Below, in pieces: positions 275-10,631 of a stretch of DNA of 10,631 bases. Numbering within the stretch: position 1 is the first letter of the stretch; each line of letters opens with the position of its first letter. Origin of the DNA: Okeania sp. (lineage in GTDB: Bacteria > Cyanobacteriota > Cyanobacteriia > Cyanobacteriales > Microcoleaceae); contig NZ_JAYKGW010000003.1 of NCBI RefSeq assembly GCF_035285525.1, positions 1 to 10,631 on the forward strand. The letters run 5' to 3'. The notes beneath the pieces are model-generated. The model made no database searches, was not told the origin of the DNA, and saw only the letters and a list, made by a program, of their open reading frames with translations. The position numbers were made by a program, and so were the translations under genes.

Positions 275-793
275 ATGTCTAATTCTACTAACTTAAACTA
301 CTCAAAAAAAGAGCAAGGCAATGCAGCTATTGGTATGGGTAGCAACTTGGGAGAATCTCTTGATACTCTTAAAAATGCCATTCAAACTTTAGATGAAATT
401 CCTGGCATTAACTTAATTACTTATTCTAATTGGTATAGAACTAAACCTGTAGGTGGTCCAAAACAATCAGACTTTATCAATGGTTGTGCATTATTAAAAG
501 TAGAATTAACTCCCCATAAATTGTTAGAAATTTTATTAGATGTTGAACAAAAATTTAAGCGAGTACGTTTAGAACATTGGGGACCTAGAACCTTAGATTT
601 AGATTTAATATTATACGATGATTTAATATTGGATACCCCTAATCTACAAATACCCCATCCTCGAATGAAAGAAAGAGCTTTTGTACTTGTCCCTTTAGCA
701 GAAATAGCTCCTAATTGGATAGAACCAGTTTCAGGAAAAACTATCGCTAAACTTCAAGAAGAAGTAGAATGTTCTGGAGTATTTCCACTTTAA
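275..793 (+). CDS. folK: 2-amino-4-hydroxy-6-hydroxymethyldihydropteridine diphosphokinase (HPPK)
   Basis: The 172-aa ORF carries the HPPK hallmarks: GSNLG near the N-terminus, YRTKPVGGPKQSDFINGC, WGPRTLDLDLILY and IPHPRMKERAFVLVPLAEI. Confidence 0.93.
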   Translation: MSNSTNLNYSKKEQGNAAIGMGSNLGESLDTLKNAIQTLDEIPGINLITYSNWYRTKPVGGPKQSDFINGCALLKVELTPHKLLEILLDVEQKFKRVRLEHWGPRTLDLDLILYDDLILDTPNLQIPHPRMKERAFVLVPLAEIAPNWIEPVSGKTIAKLQEEVECSGVFPL

Positions 794-823
794 AAAAAGG
801 CAAGTTAAATTAGCAATTTACTT

Positions 824-1543
824 ATGATTAAAAAAGCACTTATTACAGGTTCAGCAGTAGGAATAGGTAGAGCGATCGCTCTCGACTTAGCGAGTAAAGG
901 ATTTGATGTAGCATTTCATTATAGGCGCAGTGGAGAAGCAGCTAATCAAGCAGCTCAAGAGGCAGCTACCTATGGAGTTAAATCTATTGCTTTACAGGCA
1001 GATGTTACTAAACCAGAGGAAGCTAAATCTTTAGTAGAAAATGCTGCTGAAAAACTGGGAGGATTATCTGTTGTAGTTAATAATGTGGGAAACTTTCTCG
1101 AAAAAACAACTAGCCAAATATCCATAGAAGAGTGGCATGAAATGCTTGATTCAAACTTAAATTCTACCTTTTATGTTACTCAAACAAGTATTCCTTACCT
1201 TAAAGCAGCAGGTTGGGGACGTATTGTCAACTTTAGTTTCGCCAGTGCCCAACATCTTAAAGCAGATGACCAACAGACAGCCTATAGAATTGCCAAGACT
1301 GGTATTATAATCTATAGTAAGTCCCTAGCTCAAGAATTAATTAAGGACAAAATTACTGTAAATGTAGTTGCCCCAGGAGCAGCAGAAAATACTATTGGTT
1401 TAGAAGAAACGATTCCTATGCTCCCAACTAAACGGGCTGCAACTTTGCAAGAAGTAAGTCATGTAGTTGGCTTCTTTGTTAGTCCCGAATCAGGTTACAT
1501 TACTGGACAAGTTTTGGAAGTGGCAGGGGGTTGGAGATTATAA
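824..1543 (+). CDS. Short-chain dehydrogenase/reductase (classical SDR, FabG-like). It is a candidate pteridine or side-chain reductase by context only.
   Basis: The protein is 239 aa. It has TGSAVGIGRAIA (TGxxxGxG cofactor loop), HYRRS after beta2 (basic residues typical of NADPH-preferring SDRs), NNVG, and AYRIAK (catalytic YxxxK). It starts 30 nt after the folK stop. Confidence 0.9.
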   Translation: MIKKALITGSAVGIGRAIALDLASKGFDVAFHYRRSGEAANQAAQEAATYGVKSIALQADVTKPEEAKSLVENAAEKLGGLSVVVNNVGNFLEKTTSQISIEEWHEMLDSNLNSTFYVTQTSIPYLKAAGWGRIVNFSFASAQHLKADDQQTAYRIAKTGIIIYSKSLAQELIKDKITVNVVAPGAAENTIGLEETIPMLPTKRAATLQEVSHVVGFFVSPESGYITGQVLEVAGGWRL

Positions 1544-1615
1544 TTGTTTCTGAATTTCCGAGATTATGGTTAAATAAATATGATGGGAATAAGAAAAGAT
1601 TAAAGGAGTGGAAAA

Positions 1616-2524
1616 ATGCTGACTCTAGCAGATATTTGTGAGGTATATAACAAACATCAAAATGATTACAATAACACCCAAGTAGAAGAGTTTACTATTG
1701 GAAATAAAAAGTTTAACTTTAATTCTCAAACTTCTATTTTAGGAATCATTAATCTTTCTACAGAATCTTGGTATAAACCCACTATTTGTTATACTCCAGA
1801 ACAAGCAATTTGCCGTGGTAAAGTATTAACACTTCAAGGTGCCGATGTCATAGATATTGGTACTGAGTCTACTGGCAAAACTACAGCTAGGGTAGATCGG
1901 TTAGAACAAATAAGTCAACTTTTACCTATTCTGAAAACTTTCAGTCAAGAAGGTATATTAACTTCAGTGGAAACTTATTATCCAGAAGTTGCCAGGGAAT
2001 GTTTAAAAGCAGGCGCAAATGTTATCAACTTTTTGGGAACTGAAAATAGCGAAGAAATGTATCAAGCTGTAGCTGATTTTGATGCAGCAATTATTATTTG
2101 TTATGTAGAAGGAAAACACGCTAGAGATGTAGGAGAATTTGATTTTGATTCAGGTAGAGATATGATCGATGTGCTATACGATTATTTTGCCAAAGAGATA
2201 GAAATAGCAACTAAAATAGGAGTGAGAAAAATTTTTATTGACCCAGCAGTGGGTGTAGGATACGCAAATTTTTACTACCAATACAAAAATATATCAAATA
2301 GAATGAGATATCAAATTGATACTCTTTTAAATGGTTTTAGACTAAGAAAATTAGGGTTTCCTGTTTTTAATCAAATACCTACAGCTTTAGAAATTTTTGG
2401 AGAAGAGTTCAGAAGTTCTCAAGTTTTTACGGCAGTTTTTGCAGCACTAGGAAAAAATGATATGGTTAGAACCCATGAAGTTGCTAAAGTAAAATCTCTT
2501 TTTGAAACTATGAGTTGGTTGTAA
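1616..2524 (+). CDS. Dihydropteroate synthase-like pterin-binding protein (divergent FolP homologue)
   Basis: The protein is 302 aa with an AAGGAG Shine-Dalgarno at 1603-1608, 7 nt before the ATG. DHPS-like blocks are LGIINLSTESW (compare GILNVTPDSF), GADVIDIGTEST (compare IDVGGESTRPG), SVETYYPEV (compare SVDTSKPEV), FIDPAVGVGY (compare LDPGFGFGK) and VRTHEV (compare IRVHDV). Confidence 0.85.
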   Translation: MLTLADICEVYNKHQNDYNNTQVEEFTIGNKKFNFNSQTSILGIINLSTESWYKPTICYTPEQAICRGKVLTLQGADVIDIGTESTGKTTARVDRLEQISQLLPILKTFSQEGILTSVETYYPEVARECLKAGANVINFLGTENSEEMYQAVADFDAAIIICYVEGKHARDVGEFDFDSGRDMIDVLYDYFAKEIEIATKIGVRKIFIDPAVGVGYANFYYQYKNISNRMRYQIDTLLNGFRLRKLGFPVFNQIPTALEIFGEEFRSSQVFTAVFAALGKNDMVRTHEVAKVKSLFETMSWL

Positions 2525-2544
2525 TAGATATTTCCAAAAAAAGA

Positions 2545-2633
2545 GGGAACAGGAAATAGGGGAAAGTTGAAAAAATTTACTCTCTGTTTCCTGTTAAATA
2601 TTCTCTCTCTCAACTAGAAAATTTATTTTCCAC
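2545..2633. repeat. Copy of a dispersed repeat with an internal 9-bp inverted repeat. Part of it (2588-2633) recurs in inverted orientation at 7125-7170.
   Basis: AACAGGAAA (2548-2556) pairs with TTTCCTGTT (2587-2595) across a 30-nt loop. The reverse complement of 2588-2633 aligns with 7125-7170, with a core of 21 positions carrying 1 mismatch plus an AACAGGAA block at identical spacing. Confidence 0.6.
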
Positions 2634-2657
2634 AACCACTTAGTCTAAATATTCAAG

Positions 2658-3380
2658 ATGATGGTAAAAAAAGCACTTGTGACAGGTTCAGCAGTGGGAA
2701 TAGGTAGAGCGATCGCCCTCGACTTAGCAAGTAAAGGATTTGATATAGCCTTTCACTATAACAAAAGTGCAGAAGCAGCCAACCAAGCTAGTCAAAAAGC
2801 AGCTACTCAAGGTGTGAAAGCGATCGCTCTGCAAGCTGATATTACTAAACCAGAGCCAGCTAGATATTTAGTAGACAGTGCAGCGGAAAAACTGGGAGGT
2901 TTATCAGTAGTAGTTAATAATGTAGGCAACTATCTAGGAAAACCTCTCATTCAGGTATCTATAGAAGAGTGGCATGACGTTATTAATTCTAACCTTAACT
3001 CCAATTTCTATGTCACTAAAGCAGCACTTCCCTATCTGAAAGCAGCTAATGGAGCAAGGATAGTAAACTTTGCTTGTGCTAATGCCCAAAATGTGGTAGC
3101 ACGGAAAAATAATGCAGCTTACATAATTGCCAAAACTGGTATTATTATCTATACTAAGTCCTTAGCAGTTGAGCTAATTAAAGATAAAATTACTGTTAAT
3201 GTAGTATCGCCAGGAATAGCAGAAAATTCTTTGGATTTAGAAAAAATGATTCCTAAAATCCCAGCCCAACGACCTGCAAGTTTCGGAGAAATTAATAATG
3301 CAGTTTGGTTTTTTATTAACCCAAATTCTAATTATATTACAGGACAAGTATTAGAAGTATCGGGTGGTTGGCTTTTATAG
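2658..3380 (+). CDS. Short-chain dehydrogenase/reductase, a close paralogue of the 824-1543 product
   Basis: The protein is 240 aa and has the same motif set: TGSAVGIGRAIALDLASKGFD, HYNKS, NNVG, AYIIAK and ITGQVLEVSGGW. It aligns to the first SDR end to end without gaps apart from one extra N-terminal residue, and roughly two thirds or more of residues are identical by eye. Confidence 0.9.
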   Translation: MMVKKALVTGSAVGIGRAIALDLASKGFDIAFHYNKSAEAANQASQKAATQGVKAIALQADITKPEPARYLVDSAAEKLGGLSVVVNNVGNYLGKPLIQVSIEEWHDVINSNLNSNFYVTKAALPYLKAANGARIVNFACANAQNVVARKNNAAYIIAKTGIIIYTKSLAVELIKDKITVNVVSPGIAENSLDLEKMIPKIPAQRPASFGEINNAVWFFINPNSNYITGQVLEVSGGWLL

Positions 3381-3859
3381 TTAAGGTTTGCACAAAAAAA
3401 GCAGAGTTTGCGAAGTGTCTGCAAGCTGGGAAGACAGAAACAGGAGAAGGAATAATTGTTCTTTAATTTCTCTACCATTTTTTCCCGAAAATCCCAATTT
3501 TTGGGTAGTTATTATATTTGTAAAAGGTAAACTTTTTCAGTATAAAAAAAGATTATAACCATTAGATATCTCCAGAAAAGAGTGAGTAGGGAGAAATAAT
3601 TAATTATTATACCGTATTATATTTCTCCAATTCCTGACTTCATATCCTAAAAACCCTTACCTTTACCAATAGAAATCTCCAAAAATAAAAAATCAAACCA
3701 ATTATCGTACAGAAATTATCAATTCTTTCTTCCTATAGCCCATTGCCTATTGCCTCTTTTCTAGAAATGTCTAATATACCAAATGGGTTCTATATATTTG
3801 ACCTAGGTAAGATATTTTATGGTAGTTTAGTAAAAGTAAAACAAAAAAGCTGATTTCCT

Positions 3860-5020
3860 ATGAATGTAACTTCCGATGATATTAAAGCTGTATACGAGGA
3901 AAGCAATGCAACTCAACATTATTTGTCTCCAAATCGTAAAGACAATGTAAAAGTTTACTGGGAAGAAGCTTTTTCTCGTTTCGTTTTCAAACAAGCAATT
4001 CTTTCTATTGATACTCCTGCTCGCGAAAAGTTGCGTGTACTTGATGTCGGAGCTGGAATAGGAGACGGATACACTTTATTAAGCGACCTGTTGGCACAAG
4101 AACCTAGTTTGGATAAGTGCAACCTAGATTATCTAGGTATTGATATTAGTCCAGAAATGGTGGAAACTGCCAACAACTTATACAAAAATAACACGAACGT
4201 TCGCTTTGAGCAAGCCGACATTCGTAAACAAATTCCTGAAAGTCCTTTTGATTTATATCTTTCCTGTGGAGTTCCTTATTCTCATCTTACCCATGAAGAG
4301 TTAGAAACAGTCTTAAAGATACTATTTGAACGTATTCTTAAAAATCAATCTCCCTGTGCAGTTGTGATAGACGTTTTAGGAAGATACAGTATTGAATGGC
4401 AACCGCACTGGAGTGAGAGTCGGTGGAACTATAATATGAGTTTTTTCAAGAGTGAGGGCGAAGCTAAACCTACATTAATGAGTTTCTATTCTCACGAACA
4501 TCTAGAAAAAATAATTCGGAATGCTGCAAGTGAAGTTAATTGTCCAATTAAAAATCTAGCTTTCTTCGATCGCTCAATCGTAGTTGGTCGCCATACTTCA
4601 ACAGGAGCTTTTAATCGAGAACTTCCTAAATATCGCAATCTAGTTAATTCTTTACTCGATCCAAATCAAGAAACAGATTTGAATCAACTGATTCTGCGAG
4701 TAGAATCAGGAGATGCTCCAGAATATATTATTAAGTTCTTCCATCAGTTTTCTGGTTGGTGGAATACTATAATCGCTGAAGCAGCAGAATTGCTCAATGA
4801 ATCCTTAGAAGTAAATCGGGTGCAACTACCTGCCAATATCGAAAGCTTAGATGTACTGATTAAGCAAAATTTAGCTAATTCTGTTTTAACTAATGATAGA
4901 CAAAGAATAGAGTTAGCTGTTGCCAAAAGATTACAGCAACTTGAACAAACTTGTGAACCAGGGTACGGCGTTGGTCACGATCTATTCGGAGTTGTTTGGT
5001 TAGATACAAGAAATTCCTAA
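3860..5020 (+). CDS. Class I SAM-dependent methyltransferase with a long uncharacterised C-terminal extension
   Basis: The protein is 386 aa. It has LRVLDVGAGIGDG (motif I, GxGxG), YLGIDIS (acidic end of beta2), VRFEQADIR and FDLYLSCGV (motif IV-like). I recognise no motif in the roughly 200 residues after the Rossmann core. Confidence 0.85.
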   Translation: MNVTSDDIKAVYEESNATQHYLSPNRKDNVKVYWEEAFSRFVFKQAILSIDTPAREKLRVLDVGAGIGDGYTLLSDLLAQEPSLDKCNLDYLGIDISPEMVETANNLYKNNTNVRFEQADIRKQIPESPFDLYLSCGVPYSHLTHEELETVLKILFERILKNQSPCAVVIDVLGRYSIEWQPHWSESRWNYNMSFFKSEGEAKPTLMSFYSHEHLEKIIRNAASEVNCPIKNLAFFDRSIVVGRHTSTGAFNRELPKYRNLVNSLLDPNQETDLNQLILRVESGDAPEYIIKFFHQFSGWWNTIIAEAAELLNESLEVNRVQLPANIESLDVLIKQNLANSVLTNDRQRIELAVAKRLQQLEQTCEPGYGVGHDLFGVVWLDTRNS

Positions 5021-5064
5021 ACTCTGGATATGTATTTTTTCATTTTTGTAGTAACTTAAAAAAT

Positions 5065-5757
5065 ATGACATTTTTAATTACAAATGACGACGGTATCGAT
5101 GCTACAGGTATCCGAACCCTACACGCTGCCTTGTCTGAAGTCACAACCAAACCTAGTGTTATAGTTGGTCCCAAGCACCATCTATCAGGGTGTAGTCATC
5201 ATATTAATATCCGTACAGGAATCGCCGTAGAGCATCGCTCAGATTCGGAGATTTCTGTAGAAAGTACCCCAGCAGACTGCGTGCGTTTAGGTGTTAATTA
5301 TTTATATAAGGATATTGATTTTGTGCTATCGGGTATTAATCAAGGTTGTAATTTAGGTTCGGATATTTATCCGTCGGGAACGATAGCGGCAGCACGAGAG
5401 GCAACTATACATAGGATTCCAGCGATCGCCTTTTCCCATTTCCGAAGAGCTGAATGGGAAATAGACTGGGAAAGAGCAAAGAGATGGACTATTCAAGTTC
5501 TGAATATGTTGTTAGAAAAACCGATAGAACCAGGAACTTTTTGGTCGATTAATTTTCCACATCTGACATCGGATATGAACGAGCCAAACATTGTTTTTGC
5601 TCCCTGTTGCACTCGCCCACTGCTAACTGAGTTTGTTTTGGAGGGATCGTCCTATCGGTACATAGGTGACGACATTAACCGCAAGTCTGACCCCGGTACG
5701 GATGTTGATGTCTGCTTATCAGGTAATATTGCCATCTCTAAAATTCAGTTGTGGTGA
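5065..5757 (+). CDS. surE: SurE-family 5'/3'-nucleotidase/phosphatase
   Basis: FLITNDDGIDATGIRTL is the N-terminal metal-binding NDDG motif, and SGINQGCNLGSDIYPSGTIAAAREA is the SurE signature block. I chose the internal ATG at 5065 (MTFLITNDDG) because SurE proteins begin just before the NDDG strand, and because the 4996 start overlaps the methyltransferase. Confidence 0.85.
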   Translation: MTFLITNDDGIDATGIRTLHAALSEVTTKPSVIVGPKHHLSGCSHHINIRTGIAVEHRSDSEISVESTPADCVRLGVNYLYKDIDFVLSGINQGCNLGSDIYPSGTIAAAREATIHRIPAIAFSHFRRAEWEIDWERAKRWTIQVLNMLLEKPIEPGTFWSINFPHLTSDMNEPNIVFAPCCTRPLLTEFVLEGSSYRYIGDDINRKSDPGTDVDVCLSGNIAISKIQLW

Positions 5758-5827
5758 TGCTAGTTTGATGTTTGGTGTCAAAAATGGAAGCATCTAAACT
5801 ACATCAACGCTCTTTATATCATAACTT

Positions 5828-6068
5828 ATATCATGTCCGGATAATTAGTGATACAGGATTTACGCAAGTGAACCCAGAAACCCGGTTTCTCGTAGACATC
5901 TATTGCTCAAAACAAGGATTTATCGTAGAAACCGGGTTCCTCCCGTGTAAGTCCTATGATAAAAAGACTTTCTCCTGTTCTCTCCTGACTTCTGTAGAAC
6001 GGCCGTTCGCCCCTACAACTAACTCGTGACTTCTCCCTTATTTATATATGTTCATCCGGACATGATAT
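5828..6068. mobile_element. MITE-like non-coding module of 241 bp bounded by a 15-bp perfect terminal inverted repeat
   Basis: ATATCATGTCCGGAT (5828-5842) is the exact reverse complement of ATCCGGACATGATAT (6054-6068). The interior holds two copies of the GAAACCCGGTTTCTCGTAG-type palindromic repeat (5877-5896 and 5924-5940, inverted relative to each other). I could not identify a transposase or a clear target-site duplication. Confidence 0.4.
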
Positions 6069-6144
6069 TACGCAAAGTCTTAGATAATCAGGATTTAAGC
6101 AAAGGTACTATATATAGTTTGTCGGTGCGTTACGCTACCCCTTT

Positions 6145-6274
6145 ATATCAAATCCGCTGGCTTTGGAGAATAAAATTATAGCATCAGAAAAGAGCGAAAA
6201 GCCTAGTCTGTAGAGGGTTTGGAGACCAAACCCCTACTACGAGCGAATTATACCGATACTACCGGATTTGATAT
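6145..6274. repeat. Second inverted-repeat-bounded module (130 bp), with termini related to those of the 5828-6068 module
   Basis: ATATCAAATCCG (6145-6156) is the exact reverse complement of CGGATTTGATAT (6263-6274). These termini share ATATCAnnTCCG with the neighbouring module. An internal hairpin sits at GTAGAGGGTTTGG...CCAAACCCCTAC (about 6210-6237). Confidence 0.4.
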
Positions 6275-6531
6275 TACATGTCGTCTAGGGAAGCACACCG
6301 CTTACCAAGAATAAATCAACTTCAGTCTTCTTTCTTAGTTTCTTCTTTCTTCGTTACTTTGAAATTTTACTTACAGCACTTTTCACTCTTGATGAACCAA
6401 ATCGATCGGCATAACCAAACCCTTGTAGGGACGTTGCATAACAAAAATGCGTTTCATGTCGCGCAGCGATACGTTCCTACTGTGGTTCACTAAAATGAAA
6501 ACCGCTGTAACTAATTATTGAGGATATAGTA

Positions 6532-6984
6532 ATGACATTAAATGAAAAAAAAGAGGAAAAATCTCAAACTCTCAAAAATGAATCTAACTCAGATAGTTGG
6601 ATAATAGGTAAAGAATTTAGATTTGAAGCTGCTCATCAACTACCTAATCACGATGGGAAATGTGCCAGATTACATGGCCATTCTTGGCGGGGTGTTATTT
6701 ATATTTTTGGTAATAAGTTGATAACTTCTGGAGCCAAACAGGGTATGATTATGGATTATGGAGATATTAAAAAATATATTAAACCCCTCCTTGATAATTA
6801 TTTAGATCATTATCATTTAAACGAAACTACAGGTTTAACTAATCCTACCAGTGAGGCGATCGCTAAATGGATTTATGAACAATTAGAAGATAAAATTCCA
6901 GGACTTGTAGCAGTTAGAATTGATGAAACTTGTACCAGTCAATGTATTTATTCAAAAGGAAAAATTGATTTTTTAATGTTTTGA
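6532..6984 (+). CDS. queD: 6-carboxy-5,6,7,8-tetrahydropterin synthase / 6-pyruvoyltetrahydropterin synthase family protein (QueD/PTPS)
   Basis: The protein is 150 aa. It has FRFEAAHQLPNHDGKCARLHGHSW (the CxxxHGH zinc/catalytic motif of the PTPS fold), GMIMDYGDIK and LDHYHLNE. Confidence 0.88.
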   Translation: MTLNEKKEEKSQTLKNESNSDSWIIGKEFRFEAAHQLPNHDGKCARLHGHSWRGVIYIFGNKLITSGAKQGMIMDYGDIKKYIKPLLDNYLDHYHLNETTGLTNPTSEAIAKWIYEQLEDKIPGLVAVRIDETCTSQCIYSKGKIDFLMF

Positions 6985-7124
6985 GGTAATAGAGAATAGG
7001 TTCATTAATTAATAATGAATAATTGATAACTACTTCTCGTTAAAATCATCAGATTTAATATCAGGAAATCTTATTTATTTTTATCAATTATCCATTGGTA
7101 AATTTTTCAATATAATAAGTAGTC

Positions 7125-7170
7125 GTGCAAAATAAATTTCCTAGTTGAGGGAGGAAATGGGGAACAGGAA
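7125..7170. repeat. Inverted copy of the 2588-2633 dispersed repeat
   Basis: GTGCAAAATAAATTTCCTAGTTGAG...AACAGGAA aligns with the reverse complement of 2588-2633 (GTGGAAAATAAATTTTCTAGTTGAG...AACAGGAA). Confidence 0.6.
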
Positions 7171-7417
7171 GAAAGAATTGATAACTTCTGGATCGAATTA
7201 GAGATATATAATAGTAATATGTAATTAATTTTTTATAAGCACTTATCTTCTGAGTTTTTTAATTAGGAGTTGCTGATTAAATCTCAAAGGATTAATATAT
7301 AAAATTTTTAGACTTCTTATACCTACAAAAGTACCTATTTTTTGTCTGAAAATGGTAAAATTTTGACTCTAATCAAATTAAAATTATTAGTGCAATAGTA
7401 TATAGAAATTTAGTGAA

Positions 7418-8380
7418 ATGAAAAAAACCATAGGAATTATTGGAGGAGGACCTGCTGGAATGTCTTGCGCACTCTGGTTAAAGTATTTAGGTTTTTCTCC
7501 AATTATTATTGAAAGAAAACAAAAACTGGGAGGTTTACAACAGTTAAGTAATTTTCAAAATGTCTGGTATTTAGGATTAATTGAAAAAACTGGATATGAA
7601 ATTGCTGAACAGTTTCGTCAACATATTAAAATAGAAGAAATTTCTACATTATTAGGTTCTCAACTTAAGAGTATTGTCAAAGATGGGGATAATTTTCAGA
7701 TATTTACTGAAGCAAAAGAAATTACAGCTCAAGGTTTAGTTATTGCTACAGGACAAAGAATTAAAGGATATGAAAGTATCAAGTTTATTGAGGGTAGTCA
7801 CGAACTTTTATCATCACAAGAAATATTCTTCGATCCTGGTACTACTCCTCTACTTACACCCCAGATGAATGATAAAATAGTTGCCATTGTTGGAGGAGGT
7901 GATAATGGGTTAGTAACAGCAATACGTTTCTCAGAAACTGCTAAACATATTCACCTATTTGTTCGTTCGCAAATGTGTGGTTTTAAGGTTAACCAAAAAA
8001 CAATTCACGATAAAATTGAAGCTGGTAAAATAACATTGCATCAACTAACAATTATTAATAGATTTGCCGTTCAGAATAATCAAATTTATATCACTTTTAG
8101 AGATGGAGAAAAACCAGAAGAAAAATTAGCATTTGACTCTCTATGTTTGAGAATTGGGTTTGCTCCAAATATAGAAGATATAGTGCAAATTTTTAATGAA
8201 GGAAACTTAGGCAATATTCAACTTAATGAAAAAGGATATATTTCTACAGATCAATTTTTACGGACTTCTATTCCTAACATTTATGTTGCTGGAGATGTAG
8301 CAAATCCCAGAGATCCCTGTGTAGCAACAGCAGTAGCTCAAGGTGCTATTGCTGCTAGAAGTATACAAGAAGATTTATAA
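7418..8380 (+). CDS. FAD/NAD(P)-binding oxidoreductase with a thioredoxin-reductase-like fold but no redox-active CxxC
   Basis: The protein is 320 aa. It has IGIIGGGPAGMSCA (FAD GxGxxG), VAIVGGGDNG (NAD(P)H GxGxxG) and IYVAGDVAN (C-terminal FAD motif). There is no Cys pair in the segment preceding the second GxGxxG, where TrxR carries CATC. Confidence 0.88.
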   Translation: MKKTIGIIGGGPAGMSCALWLKYLGFSPIIIERKQKLGGLQQLSNFQNVWYLGLIEKTGYEIAEQFRQHIKIEEISTLLGSQLKSIVKDGDNFQIFTEAKEITAQGLVIATGQRIKGYESIKFIEGSHELLSSQEIFFDPGTTPLLTPQMNDKIVAIVGGGDNGLVTAIRFSETAKHIHLFVRSQMCGFKVNQKTIHDKIEAGKITLHQLTIINRFAVQNNQIYITFRDGEKPEEKLAFDSLCLRIGFAPNIEDIVQIFNEGNLGNIQLNEKGYISTDQFLRTSIPNIYVAGDVANPRDPCVATAVAQGAIAARSIQEDL

Positions 8381-8392
8381 TCAGAAATTACG

Positions 8393-8643
8393 CAAAGAAA
8401 TCCGGTTTCTCGTAGTAGAAAGAAATCTGGTTTCTCGTAGTAGAAAGAAACCCGGTTTCTCGTAGAAAACGGGTTTCTGGGTTCTGATGAGGATAAAAAT
8501 TTACTGATTAATAATTATAAATAGTTTTTTAGAAAGAAACCCAGTTTCTCGTAGAAAGAAACCGGGTTTCTCCTAGAAAAAAACCCGGTTTCTAGGTTCC
8601 GATGAGGATAAAAATTTACTGATTAATAATTATAAATAGTTTT
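8393..8643. repeat. Composite repeat block. It holds three 25-bp tandem units of AGAAAGAAAYCYGGTTTCTCGTAGT and further degenerate palindromic copies, all nested in a ~115-bp duplication (8472-8528 is repeated at 8587-8643).
   Basis: GGTTTCTCGTAG occurs at 8404, 8429 and 8454 (25-bp period), with related copies at 8543, 8564 and 8587. The 57-bp segment GGTTTCTGGGTTCTGATGAGGATAAAAATTTACTGATTAATAATTATAAATAGTTTT recurs 115 bp downstream with 2 mismatches. Confidence 0.85.
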
Positions 8644-8694
8644 AATTATTAATTATCAATTATTCATTATTCCCTATTCCCTAAAAATATAAAA

Positions 8695-9324
8695 ATGAGT
8701 TTAACCAAAGAATTTAAAAGTAGATATCACGAGTCGCGGATGCAATATATGGCAACAGGAAAATCTCCCACCTGTTCAGTCATTTCTTCTCAAACACCTT
8801 ACTGGAAAAATAATCGACTTATTTTTCCTTTTTTAGTTGATGACTGGGAACATTTTTATTACGTTGACTTTCCTAAAAAATTTAAAAATACAGAAAATAC
8901 CTACCCATCTATTTTAATAGGAATAGCAATGGCAGAAATTTATCGCCTTTGTGAAATATGTACTCCTAAAATAGTAAAAGTACCTTGGTATAGTTGTCTT
9001 CAATGGGAAATAGATTGGTGGAATGAAGATATTTATTGGTATCTTCAGCAAAAGTTTTATCTGGAAAAATGGGATTGGGAAAAAATGCCTCCCATAGAGT
9101 TTTCTCCAAATTCAAATTATACAGAAAACTCTGCTTTTCCTTCTGTTAATGATACTTATCTTCTTGCAGTTAGTGGTGGTAAAGAAAGTACATTTGCTTT
9201 TGAGTGGATGCAGCAAGCAAACCTGCCCATAGAAGCATTTACTTTACATAATGCGGGAGGAATATTAGGTAATAAATGGCTGGAAAAATTCCCAGTATTT
9301 GACTATATTAAAAATCAAACTTAA
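8695..9324 (+). CDS. N-terminal part of a PP-loop (adenine nucleotide alpha-hydrolase superfamily) protein. It is probably the upstream half of a frameshifted gene.
   Basis: The ORF is 209 aa. A Trp-rich N-terminal region of unknown function is followed by LLAVSGGKEST (9172-9189 encodes SGGKES, a variant of the SGGxDS PP-loop). The ORF stops only 44 residues after the ATP-binding loop. Confidence 0.6.
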   Translation: MSLTKEFKSRYHESRMQYMATGKSPTCSVISSQTPYWKNNRLIFPFLVDDWEHFYYVDFPKKFKNTENTYPSILIGIAMAEIYRLCEICTPKIVKVPWYSCLQWEIDWWNEDIYWYLQQKFYLEKWDWEKMPPIEFSPNSNYTENSAFPSVNDTYLLAVSGGKESTFAFEWMQQANLPIEAFTLHNAGGILGNKWLEKFPVFDYIKNQT

Positions 9325-10081
9325 TCTATGGGAAATACAAGCTCATACCCAGGAAGAACCGGCTGAACATTTTGCTTATGAAGGTGTTCGTAATGATCCT
9401 ACTATTACTAATGCTCTGTTCATTATGATGATAATTGCTATGCAGCAAGGTCACCGATTTTTGATATTAGCAAATGATAAGAGTTCCAATGAATCTAATG
9501 CTACATATCAGGGGCGAGAAGTTAATCATCAAAGTGCTAAAGGAGCTGCTTATATAGAACGTTTTAATGATTTTTTAAAGCGCAAAGGTTTGCCTTTTGG
9601 TTATGTGAGTATTTGCGAAGAAGTTTATTCTATAGGTACGGTTCATCAGCTATCTTTATGGAACAAAAATATCTTAAATAACCTTACTTCTTGTAATGAA
9701 GCACAGTGGTCTCCAGAAGATGTGCGATGGTGTTGTAACTGTCCAAAATGTGCTTTTTCTTATGCTTTAATTGAATCTATGACGGATTACAGTTTTGCTT
9801 CTCAAGCAGTAGGAAAAGATTTATTTAGTCTGGCAGAACTTGAGAATATTTGGAAAGGTTTATTTGACCCAAATACGGAGAAACCATTTGAGTGTGTTGG
9901 TGAAAAACGTGAAACTTTAATGGCTTTAGTTAAATGCAAAAAACAACGTCTTAAAAATGGAGAACCTTTGGGTATTCTTGTGGAAATACCTGATGTTGAT
10001 TTTGATAATTCTTTTCTCAAAATATCTCCTCCTCAAAATATTCCAATTGAACATCAAGAAAAACTAAATTCTGTTAAGTAG
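9299..10081 (+). CDS. C-terminal part of the same PP-loop-type protein, with a Cys cluster. It lies in the +1 frame relative to 8695-9324.
   Basis: The ORF is 260 aa. Its only start is a TTG inside the upstream ORF, and the frame is open from 9269. It contains LILANDKSSNE, NHQSAKG and WCCNCPKC (9731-9751), which resembles the C-terminal metal-binding Cys clusters of some PP-loop enzymes. It would supply the rest of the nucleotide-binding fold missing from the upstream ORF. Confidence 0.6.
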   Translation: MTILKIKLNLWEIQAHTQEEPAEHFAYEGVRNDPTITNALFIMMIIAMQQGHRFLILANDKSSNESNATYQGREVNHQSAKGAAYIERFNDFLKRKGLPFGYVSICEEVYSIGTVHQLSLWNKNILNNLTSCNEAQWSPEDVRWCCNCPKCAFSYALIESMTDYSFASQAVGKDLFSLAELENIWKGLFDPNTEKPFECVGEKRETLMALVKCKKQRLKNGEPLGILVEIPDVDFDNSFLKISPPQNIPIEHQEKLNSVK

Positions 10082-10239
10082 GGAATAGGAAATGTAGTTA
10101 GTCTGGTAGTTGGTTGAAATACTTGAAGTTTTGGATTATAAAAAAAGGTAAAATTTTGCCATAAGAAGAATTATACGAAAAAGGTTAATGCAATATTTTA
10201 TATAATCTTCGGTTGAATAATTACACTTAGGAGGAGGAG

Positions 10240-10631
10240 GTGAGTCATCAAAATTGGCAATAGTTGCTGATCGAAAAAGTCGTTTATACATTTCCTTAAG
10301 CACCCCGGCACAGGGGGTGAGCCATCAAAATTGGCAATAGTTGCTTACAGAAAAAGTCGTTTATACATTTCCTGAAGCACCCCGACAGAGGAGGTGAGCC
10401 ATCAAAATTGGCAATAGTTGCTTACAGAAAAAGTCGTTTATACATTTCCTGAAGCACCCCAACAGAGGAGGTGAGTCATCAAAATTGGCAATAGTTGCTT
10501 ACAGAAAAAGTCGTTTATACATTTCCTTAAGCACCCCGACAAAGGAGGTGAGTCGTGAAAATTGGCAATAGTTGCTTACAGAAAAAGTCGTTTATACATT
10601 TCCTTAAGCACCCCGACAAAGGAGGTGAGTC
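10240..10631. repeat. Non-coding tandem array with a 77-bp period: five complete units (starts 10240, 10317, 10394, 10471, 10548) and the start of a sixth, continuing past the right edge
   Basis: GTGAG(T/C)C recurs at exact 77-bp intervals. The units differ only at unit positions 6, 8, 10, 30-33, 58, 68-69, 72 and 76. The period is not a multiple of 3, and no ORF of 60 aa or more lies in the array. Confidence 0.95.

Follow-up and report, generated by a model that had tools for sequence, protein, structure and literature searches.

A lineage-restricted pterin gene neighbourhood in Okeania sp. that may conjugate and reduce a pterin with an acceptor other than pABA

Does a run of co-directional pterin genes in a filamentous marine cyanobacterium, the Trichodesmium relative Okeania, serve folate synthesis, or does it yield another, modified or conjugated pterin, as the initial annotation had proposed? 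The window analysed here is the whole 10,631-bp contig of an Okeania sp. assembly. Profile searches recovered all nine protein families named beforehand, co-directional on the plus strand and at or near the positions first assigned to them, and the view that nothing credible lies on the minus strand was borne out, the ORFs there being at most 72 aa long and each lying inside a plus-strand gene. No tRNA and no credible Rfam match was found in the 10,631-bp window. The genes are loosely packed, with gaps of 480, 775, 434 and 315 nt, the intergenic sequence being filled by short dispersed repeats:

275-793, plus strand: HPPK (FolK), 172 aa; PF01288 139.9 bits, TIGR01498 145.6 against a cutoff of 54.1
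824-1543, plus strand: SDR1, TmpR-type dihydropteridine/dihydrofolate reductase-like; NF012208 379.6 against 325
1616-2524, plus strand: DHPS-like1, the cluster core; PF00809 92.6 bits, TIGR01496 102.7, under the cutoff of 162.6
2658-3380, plus strand: SDR2, a second TmpR-type SDR; NF012208 370.1 against 325
3860-5020, plus strand: class I SAM methyltransferase (MTase), 386 aa; Methyltransf_25 47.8 bits
5065-5757, plus strand: SurE-family 5'/3'-nucleotidase/phosphatase, 230 aa; PF01975 155.5 bits, NF001493 278.5 against 230
5815-6508, no strand: non-coding segment of ~690 nt carrying GAAACCCGGTTTC-type palindromic repeats
6532-6984, plus strand: QueD/PTPS-I (6-carboxy-5,6,7,8-tetrahydropterin synthase type); PF01242 115.4 bits, TIGR03367 99.2 against 89.25
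7418-8380, plus strand: TrxR-fold FAD/NAD(P)H flavoprotein; PF07992 108.6 bits, TIGR01292 121.9 against 343
8394-8643, intergenic: palindromic repeat array, 22-25-nt units (AGAAACCCGGTTTCTCGTAGA) inside a 115-nt duplication
8695-10081, plus strand: QueC/MurL-like PP-loop ATPase gene, frameshifted (ORFs 8695-9324 and 9299-10081)

The segment at 5815-6508, within which repeats D5 and I6 fall, stayed unmatched when the window was run by blastn against the Dapis locus L085, where it is missing at that position; other loci gave short dispersed matches only.

The core protein, DHPS-like1, is 87% identical to Tery_0697 of T. erythraeum. It keeps the pterin and diphosphate residues N22, N115, D185, R255 and H257 (E. 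coli numbering here and below), but F28, R63, P64, D96, S219 and K221 are absent, with W replacing F28, E replacing D96 and A replacing K221. By contrast, F28, D96, S219 and K221 are each present in 40/40 canonical DHPS from many phyla, P64 in 39/40, and position 63 is R in 35 and K in 4 of the same set. The replacements extend to the whole DHPS-like family, all 31 members of which have E at 96, C at 139, P at 219 and A at 221 and lack R63, and all 31 keep N22, S27, E60, N115, D185, G189, R255 and H257; this ligand conservation spans cyanobacteria, Verrucomicrobia and actinobacteria. Only 51 of 1.84 billion representatives reached E≤1e-30 in the DHPS-like search, and among the 100 full-length top matches 36 carry the family signature and 56 the canonical NFRPDNMDKSRKRH signature, with a clean switch at ~105-115 bits. 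Judged by these sequences, the family is best described as a discrete clade, and DHPS-like1 as a member of this rare, uncharacterised group of E96/C139/A221 DHPS paralogues. The alignment of strand 7 is uncertain, hhalign placing F and MAFFT placing A opposite K221. A basic residue repositioned from the invariant FRLRK segment could compensate for K221.

The loss of the catalytic K221 would also fit a protein that is no transferase at all, acting instead as a pterin-binding or regulatory protein, as a carrier or in a different chemistry, as suspected for mycobacterial FolP2; the folP2 of M. leprae is indeed a DHPS paralogue that fails to complement a folP mutant (PMC1971073). We consider this highly unlikely, since no member, whatever its phylum, has lost the diphosphate/Mg ligands (N22, R255, H257) or the pterin ligands (N115, D185), which argues for continued turnover of a diphosphate substrate. 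Moreover, FolP2 (2vp8) does not stand nearer to the family than canonical DHPS does, and the family's pairing with HPPK and with a subtype-matched reductase is tight.

Nor is the DHPS-like gene the housekeeping folP. A folK/DHPS-like pair standing alone in its genome, with a DHPS-like gene that complements a folP mutant, had been named as speaking against the initial proposal; in T. erythraeum IMS101, the one genome in which a canonical folP was verified, the orthologues Tery_0697 and Tery_0699 coexist with Tery_1381, a canonical folP that has a TIGRFAM DHPS match and adjoins tpiA. All three genes are expressed, and expression of the paralogues is no weaker than that of the canonical folP. As the pABA-binding residues of DHPS-like1 are lost, the protein probably makes a pterin compound other than folate.

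A place within folate metabolism would nevertheless be conceivable if the DHPS-like proteins were alternative or salvage DHPS isozymes, for example re-coupling the pterin donor, hydroxymethyldihydropterin diphosphate, with p-aminobenzoyl-glutamate or a different pABA derivative from folate breakdown, or conferring resistance to natural antifolates, and if a cyanobacterium lacking folA used the TmpR-type SDRs as its DHFR. In that case the extra carboxylates of pABA-Glu could be held by the invariant basic FRLRK segment, and the expression of the paralogues agrees with such a role, but K221, R63-P64, F28 and S219, invariant or nearly so in canonical DHPS, are replaced in every family member, the TIGR01496 score stays under its cutoff, the paralogues coexist with a canonical folP, and the Streptomyces and Verrucomicrobia members sit outside folate clusters. 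Altogether we regard a folate role of this kind as clearly unlikely.

The folate alternative draws further on the two SDRs, in both of which the TGxxxGxG and S...YxxxK motifs are visible. Both pass NF012208, the NCBIfam model for [quoted passage not shown] (cutoff 325), and SDR1 shares 92% identity with Tery_0696, for which KEGG gives TTHA0461, the DHPR/DHFR of T. thermophilus, as the best match. No folA was found in the examined part of the T. erythraeum gene table. DHFR activity is documented for the TmpR-type family, so that the window SDRs could simply be the organism's DHFR and a link to folate is thus possible. A DHFR gene is recorded as missing in Prochlorococcus (PMC1971073). The pairing of the reductases follows the DHPS paralogues: wherever a cyanobacterial locus extends far enough, a TmpR-type SDR directly adjoins the DHPS-like gene, and in 11/12 loci the subtypes of the two vary together, SDR1 being the partner of DHPS-like1. 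SDR2 is 81% identical to Tery_0698, which precedes the DHPS-like2 gene Tery_0699 in T. erythraeum; no remnant of DHPS-like2 was found in the window, and SDR2 is the orphan partner of a DHPS-like2 gene lost from the Okeania lineage to which the window belongs.

The supply genes are shared ground, as the grouping with FolB, HPPK and a Nudix hydrolase corresponds to the pterin branch within folate biosynthesis and also counts for the folate alternative. The window HPPK is 88% identical to the folK Tery_0688, and the product of HPPK is 6-hydroxymethyl-7,8-dihydropterin diphosphate. Besides the HPPK and FolB of the neighbourhood, no other folK or folB is annotated in the examined part of the T. erythraeum table, so that these two may be housekeeping supply genes that serve folate as well. 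FolB adjoins the cluster in relatives, and the earlier idea that a PTPS-III enzyme feeds HPPK and bypasses FolB does not apply, since the window PTPS has the motif C-A-R-L-H-G-H, which fits CxxxHGH (QueD/PTPS-I) and not ExxHGH, ruling out a PTPS-III identity. In the PDB it matches P. aeruginosa 2oba and E. coli QueD 3qn0 best.

QueD adjoins the TrxR-like gene in three loci (L007, L012 and L014), and the TrxR-like family occurs in 8 loci beside a DHPS-like, QueD or MurL-like gene. No redox-active CxxC was found in the flavoprotein in its alignment to TrxR 4zn0. The PP-loop gene is split by a single +1-nt frameshift, frame 1 being followed by frame 2, and if any one base in 9296-9324 is removed, an ORF of 462 aa results that is collinear with the intact homologues of 464-465 aa (L016, L018). 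Its protein carries SGGKES as the PP-loop and WCCxCPKC as a C-terminal motif, scores 71.9 with the MurL model NF041275 against a cutoff of 700, and yields a predicted model (pLDDT 90.9) that matches QatC, QueC 3bl5 (TMt 0.66) and Cap9 (TMt 0.71). The enzyme thus appears QueC-like by its predicted fold and MurL-like by sequence; since it is frameshifted, the window copy is probably inactive.

The MTase-SurE pair is of another origin. The SurE ORF opens at 4996, the likely start being M at 5065, and the gene called in L001 spans 5065-5757. The window MTase is 86% identical to a Dapis copy in the same position, but shares 57% and 54% identity with the main copies of Okeania and T. erythraeum (Tery_1776), which are located elsewhere; the corresponding values for SurE are 92% for Dapis and 72% for the Okeania main copy. 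The window pair is a diverged, recruited duplicate of a general cyanobacterial pair, the MTase being widespread in cyanobacteria and mostly accompanied by SurE; the main copies lie well apart from pterin genes, in T. erythraeum (Tery_1776/1774), in Okeania (L087, L088) and in a further cyanobacterium (L089). The initial annotation had these enzymes methylate and dephosphorylate a pterin; both families are indeed present, but since they duplicate a pair sited away from pterin genes, a pterin role is only possible. MTase homologues together with a HAD phosphatase, which is not homologous to SurE, adjoin DHPS-like1 in L009 and in Nodularia (L091).

The arrangement goes beyond chance, as many filamentous cyanobacteria have these families around the DHPS-like gene. 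HPPK, FolB, Nudix, QueD, TrxR-like, PP-loop and methyltransferase genes are found around it in Oscillatoriales and Nostocales, and counted over species-level representative genomes the recurrent neighbours are Nudix (11 loci), HPPK (10, at most 10 kb from the DHPS-like gene), TrxR-like (8), FolB (7), MurL-like (6) and QueD (5), while an EgtD-like Methyltransf_33 gene is near in 10 loci, Verrucomicrobia included. The expectation that the gene set travels together is therefore upheld across cyanobacterial orders. The adjacencies QueD-TrxR-like, like2-MurL-like-TrxR-like and like1-TrxR-like recur in Dolichospermum, Symploca, Caldora, Rivularia and Brasilonema. Beside the conserved core the tailoring sets vary, comprising MTase and SurE in the window and Dapis, MTase and HAD in Nodularia and L009, and SET, aminotransferase and 2OG oxygenase in Roseofilum and Phormidium.

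This recurrence has to be weighed against signs of decay. The close relatives L005, L007, L085 and T. erythraeum do not share one gene order, copies of QueD and the TrxR-like gene are degraded to remnants in sister genomes, and the T. erythraeum QueD has an in-frame stop in its N-terminal extension. The nine genes can thus not be taken as one intact pathway, as first suggested, given the frameshifted PP-loop gene, the lost partner of SDR2 and the decayed sister copies; loss of several cluster genes in the clade would fit a dispensable function. Such decay would also suit a mosaic assembled as Trichodesmium-clade genomes underwent their frequent rearrangements, in which only HPPK-SDR-DHPS-like(-SDR) is a functional unit, QueD serves queuosine, MTase-SurE is general, and decay is overtaking the neighbouring genes for the flavoprotein and the broken PP-loop enzyme. 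The varied order with its remnants, the MTase-SurE pairs without pterin genes, the frameshift, the standard type of QueD along with queA in T. erythraeum, and the large, repeat-rich gaps all point this way. The recurrence of the QueD/like1/like2/MurL-like/TrxR-like adjacencies in distant genera does not, nor do the diverged MTase paralogue kept in the same Dapis slot and the MTase homologue that flanks DHPS-like1 together with a non-homologous HAD phosphatase in Nodularia and L009, so that we hold a mosaic to be somewhat unlikely.

The reading we prefer, at a little short of even confidence, is that the window encodes a lineage-restricted accessory module that conjugates a pterin to an acceptor other than pABA and reduces it, embedded among pterin-precursor genes. 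HPPK, as its family membership suggests, would pyrophosphorylate 6-hydroxymethyl-7,8-dihydropterin. DHPS-like1 appears to keep the half-site for the pterin ring and the diphosphate leaving group, whereas the loop-1, loop-2 and strand-7 residues that in true DHPS bind pABA and stabilise the transition state seem to be replaced; for this reason it most likely still ionises the pterin diphosphate but would pass the dihydropterin-6-ylmethyl group to a non-pABA nucleophile, probably an amine-bearing, anionic or phosphorylated small molecule. SDR1, to judge from its family and invariant adjacency, would then convert the 7,8-dihydro product by reduction into the tetrahydro form, or else recycle its quinonoid form. 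A second recurrent sub-module of QueD, the CxxC-less flavoprotein and the QueC/MurL-like carboxylate-adenylating enzyme may act on 6-carboxy-tetrahydropterin, and the MTase-SurE pair could tailor the acceptor or product or provide the unassigned dihydroneopterin-monophosphate phosphatase step. The proposal of a modified or conjugated pterin thus gains from the non-folP paralogue and the gene co-occurrence, but not in its form of a single intact pathway, and the chemistry of the product is inferred.

No publication on the DHPS-like gene cluster was found, and its components can be set beside several known systems. Like canonical FolP (EC 2.5.1.15), DHPS-like1 is a Pterin_bind TIM-barrel, its best PDB matches are all DHPS (E down to 2e-22), and N22, N115, D185, R255 and H257 are common to both. 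As in the FolB-FolK-FolP branch it adjoins HPPK, and in relatives FolB and Nudix as well; no folE, folC or pab genes were found in the DHPS-like neighbourhood. Mycobacterial FolP2 (Rv1207, PDB 2vp8) is likewise an additional DHPS paralogue and no substitute for FolP, but belongs to another clade, 2vp8 scoring below canonical DHPS against both the window protein and the Streptomyces member, and clusters with cell-wall genes (PMC1971073).

The PP-loop protein shares the SGGKxS motif and the C-terminal Cys cluster with QueC, QatC, Cap9 and MurL; its predicted fold matches the first three and its sequence the MurL model, and among its homologues PF26298 and PF26299 are present as precomputed Pfam domains. 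PP-loop enzymes of this type carry out ATP-driven carboxylate activation. By contrast to these enzymes, its gene stands in a pterin cluster and not in a cell-wall, queuosine or defence context, PADLOC giving no defence-system match for it, and with at most ~29% identity to other MurL-like proteins it belongs to a small, almost exclusively cyanobacterial family.

The archaeal methanopterin enzyme (TIGR00284-type) offers a parallel for the transfer, since this DHPS-fold protein starts from the same pterin donor and lets an acceptor other than pABA, namely ribofuranosylaminobenzene phosphate, take the place of the diphosphate, and a later dephosphorylation step would suit the SurE and HAD phosphatases. 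The sequence relation is, however, marginal (TIGR00284 24.4 for the window DHPS-like protein against a cutoff of 256.65), and no RFAP synthase or other methanopterin gene was found in any locus examined. As for TmpR and TTHA0461, both window SDRs exceed the NF012208 cutoff, but here two SDR subtypes occur, each with its own DHPS paralogue, and the putative substrate may be a dihydropterin conjugate instead of dihydrofolate. Finally, in H. pylori DHPS is fused to a flavin-dependent dihydropteroate reductase (PMC1971073). The Okeania genes follow the same logic of a DHPS-fold enzyme coupled to a reductase of its product, except that the reductase is an SDR with a gene of its own and the DHPS part departs from the canonical type.

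Profile searches of the window recovered, on the + strand, every gene family named in the initial annotation, which are thus confirmed. Its statement that nothing credible lies on the other strand likewise holds, since the minus strand offers only four ORFs of 60-72 aa, each within a + strand gene. The contig has a G+C content of about 34%, and 5.7 kb of it is reproduced by one Logan contig.

Genes of the window, with profile scores against model cutoffs
275-793, + strand: HPPK (TIGR01498, 145.6 against an equivalog cutoff of 54.1)
824-1543, + strand: SDR1 (NF012208, 379.6 against 325)
1616-2524, + strand: Pterin_bind protein, here DHPS-like1, a paralogue of dihydropteroate synthase (PF00809, 92.6 bits against 25.5)
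2658-3380, + strand: SDR2 (NF012208, 370.1 against 325)
3860-5020, + strand: class I SAM methyltransferase (profile search)
5065 (likely start)-5757, + strand: SurE (NF001493, 278.5 against 230; N-terminal NDDG motif, LITNDDG)
6532-6984, + strand: QueD/PTPS (TIGR03367, 99.2 against 89.25)
7418-8380, + strand: TrxR-fold flavoprotein (profile search)
8695-9324 and 9299-10081, + strand: PP-loop gene in two overlapping ORFs (SGGKES PP-loop protein across both)

No tRNA was found in the window, the sole Rfam match (C0719, 19.7 bits against 50) is at chance level, and so are the promoter patterns (38 against 38.3 in shuffles) and terminator patterns (4 against 6.1). The contig starts with a perfect 58-nt direct repeat at 69-nt spacing (1-127), upstream of HPPK, and parts of 147-225 recur in two of the compared loci (L005 and Okeania SIO1I7, L007) as a short dispersed repeat. 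At the other end, 10235-10631 is a 77-nt tandem repeat (5.2 copies, 95% matches) that is non-coding in six frames and reaches the contig end, where it is probably the reason for the assembly break. Clusters of 21-25-nt palindromic units (AGAAACCCGGTTTCTCGTAGA) lie at 8394-8643 and 5870-5935, one of them within a segment of about 690 nt (5815-6508) that is absent at that position in Dapis sp. BLCC M126; they resemble a minor family of repeats in this clade, mobile or able to expand.

DHPS-like1 aligns with E. coli FolP at an hhalign probability of 99.3 and falls below the TIGR01496 equivalog cutoff (102.7 against 162.6), as do Tery_0699 of Trichodesmium erythraeum (114.3), which represents a second subtype (like2), and a Streptomyces member (147). 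With T. erythraeum Tery_0697 it shares 87% identity. The T. erythraeum paralogues have no 'ana' or 'ava' entry as best KEGG hit, and one of them matched only Synechocystis slr2026, annotated as dihydropteroate synthase, so Anabaena PCC 7120 and Synechocystis may both lack the clade. In a genome scan with the family alignment, identities to the window protein were 54-90% in filamentous cyanobacteria, 44-49% in Verrucomicrobia, 35-37% in Streptomyces and Kineosporiaceae, and at most 33% for canonical FolP (28% in Prochlorococcus). Searched exhaustively with HMMER, 1.84 billion representatives yielded 6,902 matches of the DHPS superfamily, only 51 of them at E<=1e-30; among the best 100 full-length matches 36 carried the family-type signature and 56 the canonical one, with a clean switch at about 105-115 bits, from which the clade can be judged discrete and rare. 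All PDB matches above threshold were DHPS or HPPK-DHPS, bar one designed repeat protein. Identity with mycobacterial FolP2 was rejected, as 2vp8 ranks under canonical DHPS among these matches, and so was membership of the archaeal methanopterin DHPS-like family (TIGR00284, 24.4 against a cutoff of 256.65). A MeTr/MetH-type Pterin_bind protein was provisionally set aside because the DHPS-specific diphosphate ligands N22 and R255-x-H257 are strictly kept and because of the PDB matches just described. Public records label the clade proteins 'dihydropteroate synthase', NCBIfam holds no model specific to the clade, and no description of clade or cluster was found in the literature on the family, on DHPS-like enzymes in gene clusters or on Trichodesmium folate genes.

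The active-site comparison covered 31 family members, 40 canonical DHPS spanning many phyla, and E. coli FolP, whose numbering is used. Among canonical enzymes D96, S219 and K221 are each present in 40/40, F28 in 40/40, P64 in 39/40 and R63 in 35/40, with lysine in a further four. All 31 family members carry E96, C139, P219 and A221 and lack R63-P64; the replacements are F28 to W or T, R63 to S, A, G, L or N, P64 to K, E or A, D96 to E, S219 to P and K221 to A, although the counterpart of K221 depends on the alignment, hhalign setting F rather than A opposite it. N22, S27, E60, N115, D185, G189, R255 and H257 are kept in all 31. In DHPS of established structure the retained residues are the ligands of the pterin ring and of the diphosphate with Mg, and the lost ones form the pABA pocket and include the catalytic lysine. 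Loss of that lysine would suit a protein that is not a transferase at all, a reading which, next to the full retention of the presumed donor ligands, appears highly improbable. The preferred reading is that of an HPPK-fed DHPS paralogue, in which the protein would still use hydroxymethyldihydropterin diphosphate from the neighbouring HPPK and would transfer the pterin-methyl group to an acceptor other than pABA, and the SDR would then reduce the product; this is held tentatively, at somewhat less than an even chance.

A folate-related role is one alternative. Both window SDRs pass NF012208, the model for TmpR / SDR dihydropteridine-dihydrofolate reductases; on this reading the paralogue would be an alternative or salvage DHPS that might use pABA-Glu, for instance, and the SDR would supply DHFR activity in a cyanobacterium devoid of folA. 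In T. erythraeum IMS101, the closest complete genome, the listed genes include folB (Tery_0687), folK (Tery_0688) and folC (Tery_1603), as well as a canonical folP, Tery_1381, which matches the TIGRFAM DHPS model, adjoins tpiA and lies about 1 Mb away (PMC12090762 supplement). The initial annotation had proposed a non-housekeeping pterin cluster and held that it would fail if the folK/DHPS-like pair were the genome's only copy and the DHPS-like gene complemented a folP mutant; in T. erythraeum the DHPS-like gene and a canonical folP coexist, and this main test therefore goes its way in that species. In the expression table of the same source the DHPS paralogues reach about 43-160 in the table's units and folP about 21-36, so that they are expressed at least equally. 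The accompanying iron-availability transcriptome gives Tery_0697 (L002, the T. erythraeum locus, 10001-10906) as significantly regulated (log2FC about 1, padj 4.6e-4 and 8.7e-4), along with its neighbours Tery_0693 and Tery_0702; canonical folP is not among the significantly regulated genes in that table (PMC12090762). With a separate folP in T. erythraeum and the presumed pABA pocket lost throughout the family, a folate-related role is considered unlikely.

The DHPS-like gene was expected to travel with its neighbours, and a census in which ORFs from 32 loci were clustered bears this out, the same families recurring around it. TmpR-type SDRs occur in 16 loci, directly beside the DHPS-like gene in all cyanobacterial loci whose flanks are long enough, Nudix hydrolases in 11 (mostly directly upstream of the SDR), HPPK in 10, EgtD-like Methyltransf_33 in 10 (4 of them in Verrucomicrobia, where it is the sole conserved partner), a CxxC-less TrxR-like flavoprotein in 8, FolB in 7, a MurL-like PP-loop protein in 6 and QueD in 5. 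The Streptomyces and Kineosporiaceae loci showed neither conserved neighbours nor a recognisable biosynthetic cluster. There are two cyanobacterial subtypes, like1 (the window type) and like2, 56% identical to each other, and the SDR subtype matches that of the neighbouring DHPS-like protein in 11 of 12 loci. The order in T. erythraeum is SDR1-like1-SDR2-like2-QueD, and its Tery_0698 is 81% identical to the window SDR2. Neither the window nor Dapis (L085), L005 or Okeania SIO1I7 has a like2 gene, and no remnant of one was found in the window's gap at 5757-6532; given this absence and the subtype matching, the window SDR2 is therefore an orphan. The like2 proteins of Verrucomicrobia share 60-64% identity with that of T. 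erythraeum, which suggests horizontal transfer. Among partners of the like2 type, only the EgtD-like Methyltransf_33 (81 bits, where the EgtD cutoff is 291) is kept across phyla (Verrucomicrobia L020, L022, L025 and L027; L002 15720-16712; L017 8243-9232), and the Hormoscilla operon itself includes it, reading Nudix-MT33-SDR-like2. In two genomes the ergothioneine genes EgtB and EgtD immediately precede HPPK, and other genomes have near the cluster an OpuAC-permease/ABC-ATPase pair of the betaine or ergothioneine uptake type and a 'Cyano_EgtBD' domain protein (L006 1520-4104; L018 1231-3784; L015 13385-15736; L085 12803-13381). In Okeania SIO1I7 a DUF1688 protein with faint likeness to a queuosine-salvage family (L007 3384-4622, 525 bits) adjoins FolB.

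Beyond the shared core, the genes beside like1 vary with lineage. In Roseofilum (L092 12913-15474) and Phormidium sp. CCY1219 (L008 1412-3947) like1 is followed directly, in the same orientation, by a SET-domain methyltransferase, a class I/II aminotransferase and a 2OG-Fe(II) oxygenase, candidate enzymes for synthesis or modification of the acceptor, and in L090 an FMO, a P450 and other genes are found beside it. The HPPK-SDR1 interval of Okeania SIO1I7 (L007 5838-12909) holds a two-domain N-methyltransferase, PanD, two gamma-butyrobetaine-hydroxylase-like dioxygenases and a CmcI-like methyltransferase; the same insert is present in decayed form in T. erythraeum (L002 4127-7971, Tery_0690-0693), where the methyltransferase is fragmented. 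These insert genes look like a betaine- or carnitine-type pathway. Trichodesmium accumulates trimethyl-homoserine, and we know of no methyltransferase identified for it.

The methyltransferase-SurE pair of the window has a mosaic history. In Dapis the order FolB(-)-HPPK-SDR-like1-SDR-MTase-SurE-QueD is found at about 90% nucleotide identity, with the pair in the same slot. A class I methyltransferase of about 388 aa and SurE form a pair conserved across cyanobacteria, reminiscent of surE-pcm in E. coli. It occurs without pterin genes in T. erythraeum (Tery_1776/Tery_1774), in Okeania (L087 and L088, both 6001-9518) and in L089 (6001-7896), and Tery_1776 is very highly expressed in the T. erythraeum table, at 600-1650 in its units (PMC12090762). 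Compared with the Okeania main copies, the window MTase shows just 57% identity and the window SurE 72%, which marks the window pair as a diverged duplicate, inserted at the position that like2 occupies in T. erythraeum. The window methyltransferase showed no significant similarity to the T. erythraeum EgtD-like Methyltransf_33 (E 0.34, in the SAM-motif stretch). A homologue of it recurs beside like1 in Nostocales, together with a non-homologous HAD phosphatase (Nodularia L091, and L009), so that a functional link of the pair to the pterin genes is possible. That only HPPK, SDR and the DHPS-like gene form a unit, in an otherwise mosaic neighbourhood, is less likely than not, given this Nostocales recurrence and the family census; it fits the inserted duplicate and is partly compatible with the preferred reading of an HPPK-fed paralogue.

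The downstream trio of QueD, flavoprotein and PP-loop protein departs in part from the initial annotation. Its suggestion of a PTPS-III-type bypass of FolB does not stand, since the motif C-A-R-L-H-G-H fits the CxxxHGH signature of PTPS-I/QueD, with Ala rather than Glu after the Cys, and not the ExxHGH of PTPS-III (CExxHGH in hybrids; PMC5041015); the closest structures are E. coli QueD and P. aeruginosa PA2666. The flavoprotein has both dinucleotide-binding motifs, and thioredoxin reductase was rejected for it (TIGR01292, 121.9 against 343.45), CxxC being absent from the sequence and from its alignment to 4zn0. The QueC-like reading of the PP-loop protein is supported by its fold, as a confident predicted model (pLDDT 90.9) matches QatC, B. 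subtilis QueC (3bl5, TMt 0.66, spanning only the core of the 465-aa protein) and Cap9 (TMt 0.71). SGGKES and WCCxCPKC are present; none of the QueC family models matched. Precomputed Pfam annotation gives its homologues the MurL domains PF26298 and PF26299. The family is small, comprising about 36 clusters at >=39% identity, nearly all cyanobacterial; a gap in identity sets it apart from the MurL-like proteins found in other phyla (25-29% identical). MurL itself was rejected (NF041275, 71.4-71.9 against a cutoff of 700), a MurD2-like gene being found in none of the loci, and so was anti-phage defence (Qat, CBASS type IV), PADLOC giving no matches for the PP-loop, DHPS-like and SurE proteins. 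A PDB sequence search with the MurL-like protein gave nothing significant, the weak 'DxWEHAYY' match being to SOD (E 0.6). QueC-type enzymes adenylate a deazaguanine carboxylate. As MurL is likewise thought to adenylate a carboxylate, the alpha-carboxylate of glutamate (PMC8788868), we reasonably infer by analogy that the PP-loop enzyme would be carboxylate-activating, its substrate perhaps being 6-carboxy-tetrahydropterin made by QueD.

In Caldora and another cyanobacterium the PP-loop gene is a single ORF of 464-465 aa. In the window it passes from frame 1 to frame 2, and any one-base deletion in 9296-9324 restores 462 aa; this single +1-nt frameshift may mean true pseudogenization or a mistake in the assembly. 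Similar decay is seen in sister genomes, with QueD fragments (L005 10956-11500), a 126-nt TrxR-like remnant (L085 9087-9212) and, in T. erythraeum QueD, an in-frame stop within the N-terminal extension.

Since several cluster genes have decayed in the Trichodesmium/Okeania clade, the function of the cluster is suggested to be dispensable there. As to the product, it is possible, at rather less than even probability, that the paralogue and its dedicated TmpR-type reductase make an undescribed tetrahydropterin conjugate, a 'pteroate analogue', whose non-pABA moiety would come from or be tailored by the lineage-specific methyltransferase, phosphatase, PLP and 2OG-oxygenase sets, and that in intact clusters, such as those of Symploca/Caldora (L015/L016) or Dolichospermum (L012), the trio of QueD, flavoprotein and QueC/MurL-like protein adds a 6-carboxypterin-derived amide branch. 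If true, filamentous cyanobacteria, the Trichodesmium clade among them, would have a new class of cofactor or metabolite, and Verrucomicrobia and Streptomyces would hold relatives.

Carriers of the clade include Trichodesmium and its relatives, major nitrogen fixers of the sea, in which both paralogues are expressed, one of them iron-responsively. Naming these proteins 'dihydropteroate synthase' makes folP seem more numerous than it is, and predictions about folate metabolism and resistance to sulfonamides may be led astray. What is new is an enzyme of the DHPS fold whose acceptor site has been rewritten and which belongs to a conserved pterin cluster; this is a concrete lead but does not yet amount to evidence for a new cofactor. 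DHPS is among the best-studied drug targets, and to our knowledge only two acceptor types for the same pterin diphosphate are known for its fold, pABA in folate and RFAP in methanopterin; an enzyme that keeps the donor site, has a rewritten acceptor site and stands alongside its own reductase and HPPK offers a lead to a third acceptor, and possibly to a new pterin cofactor.
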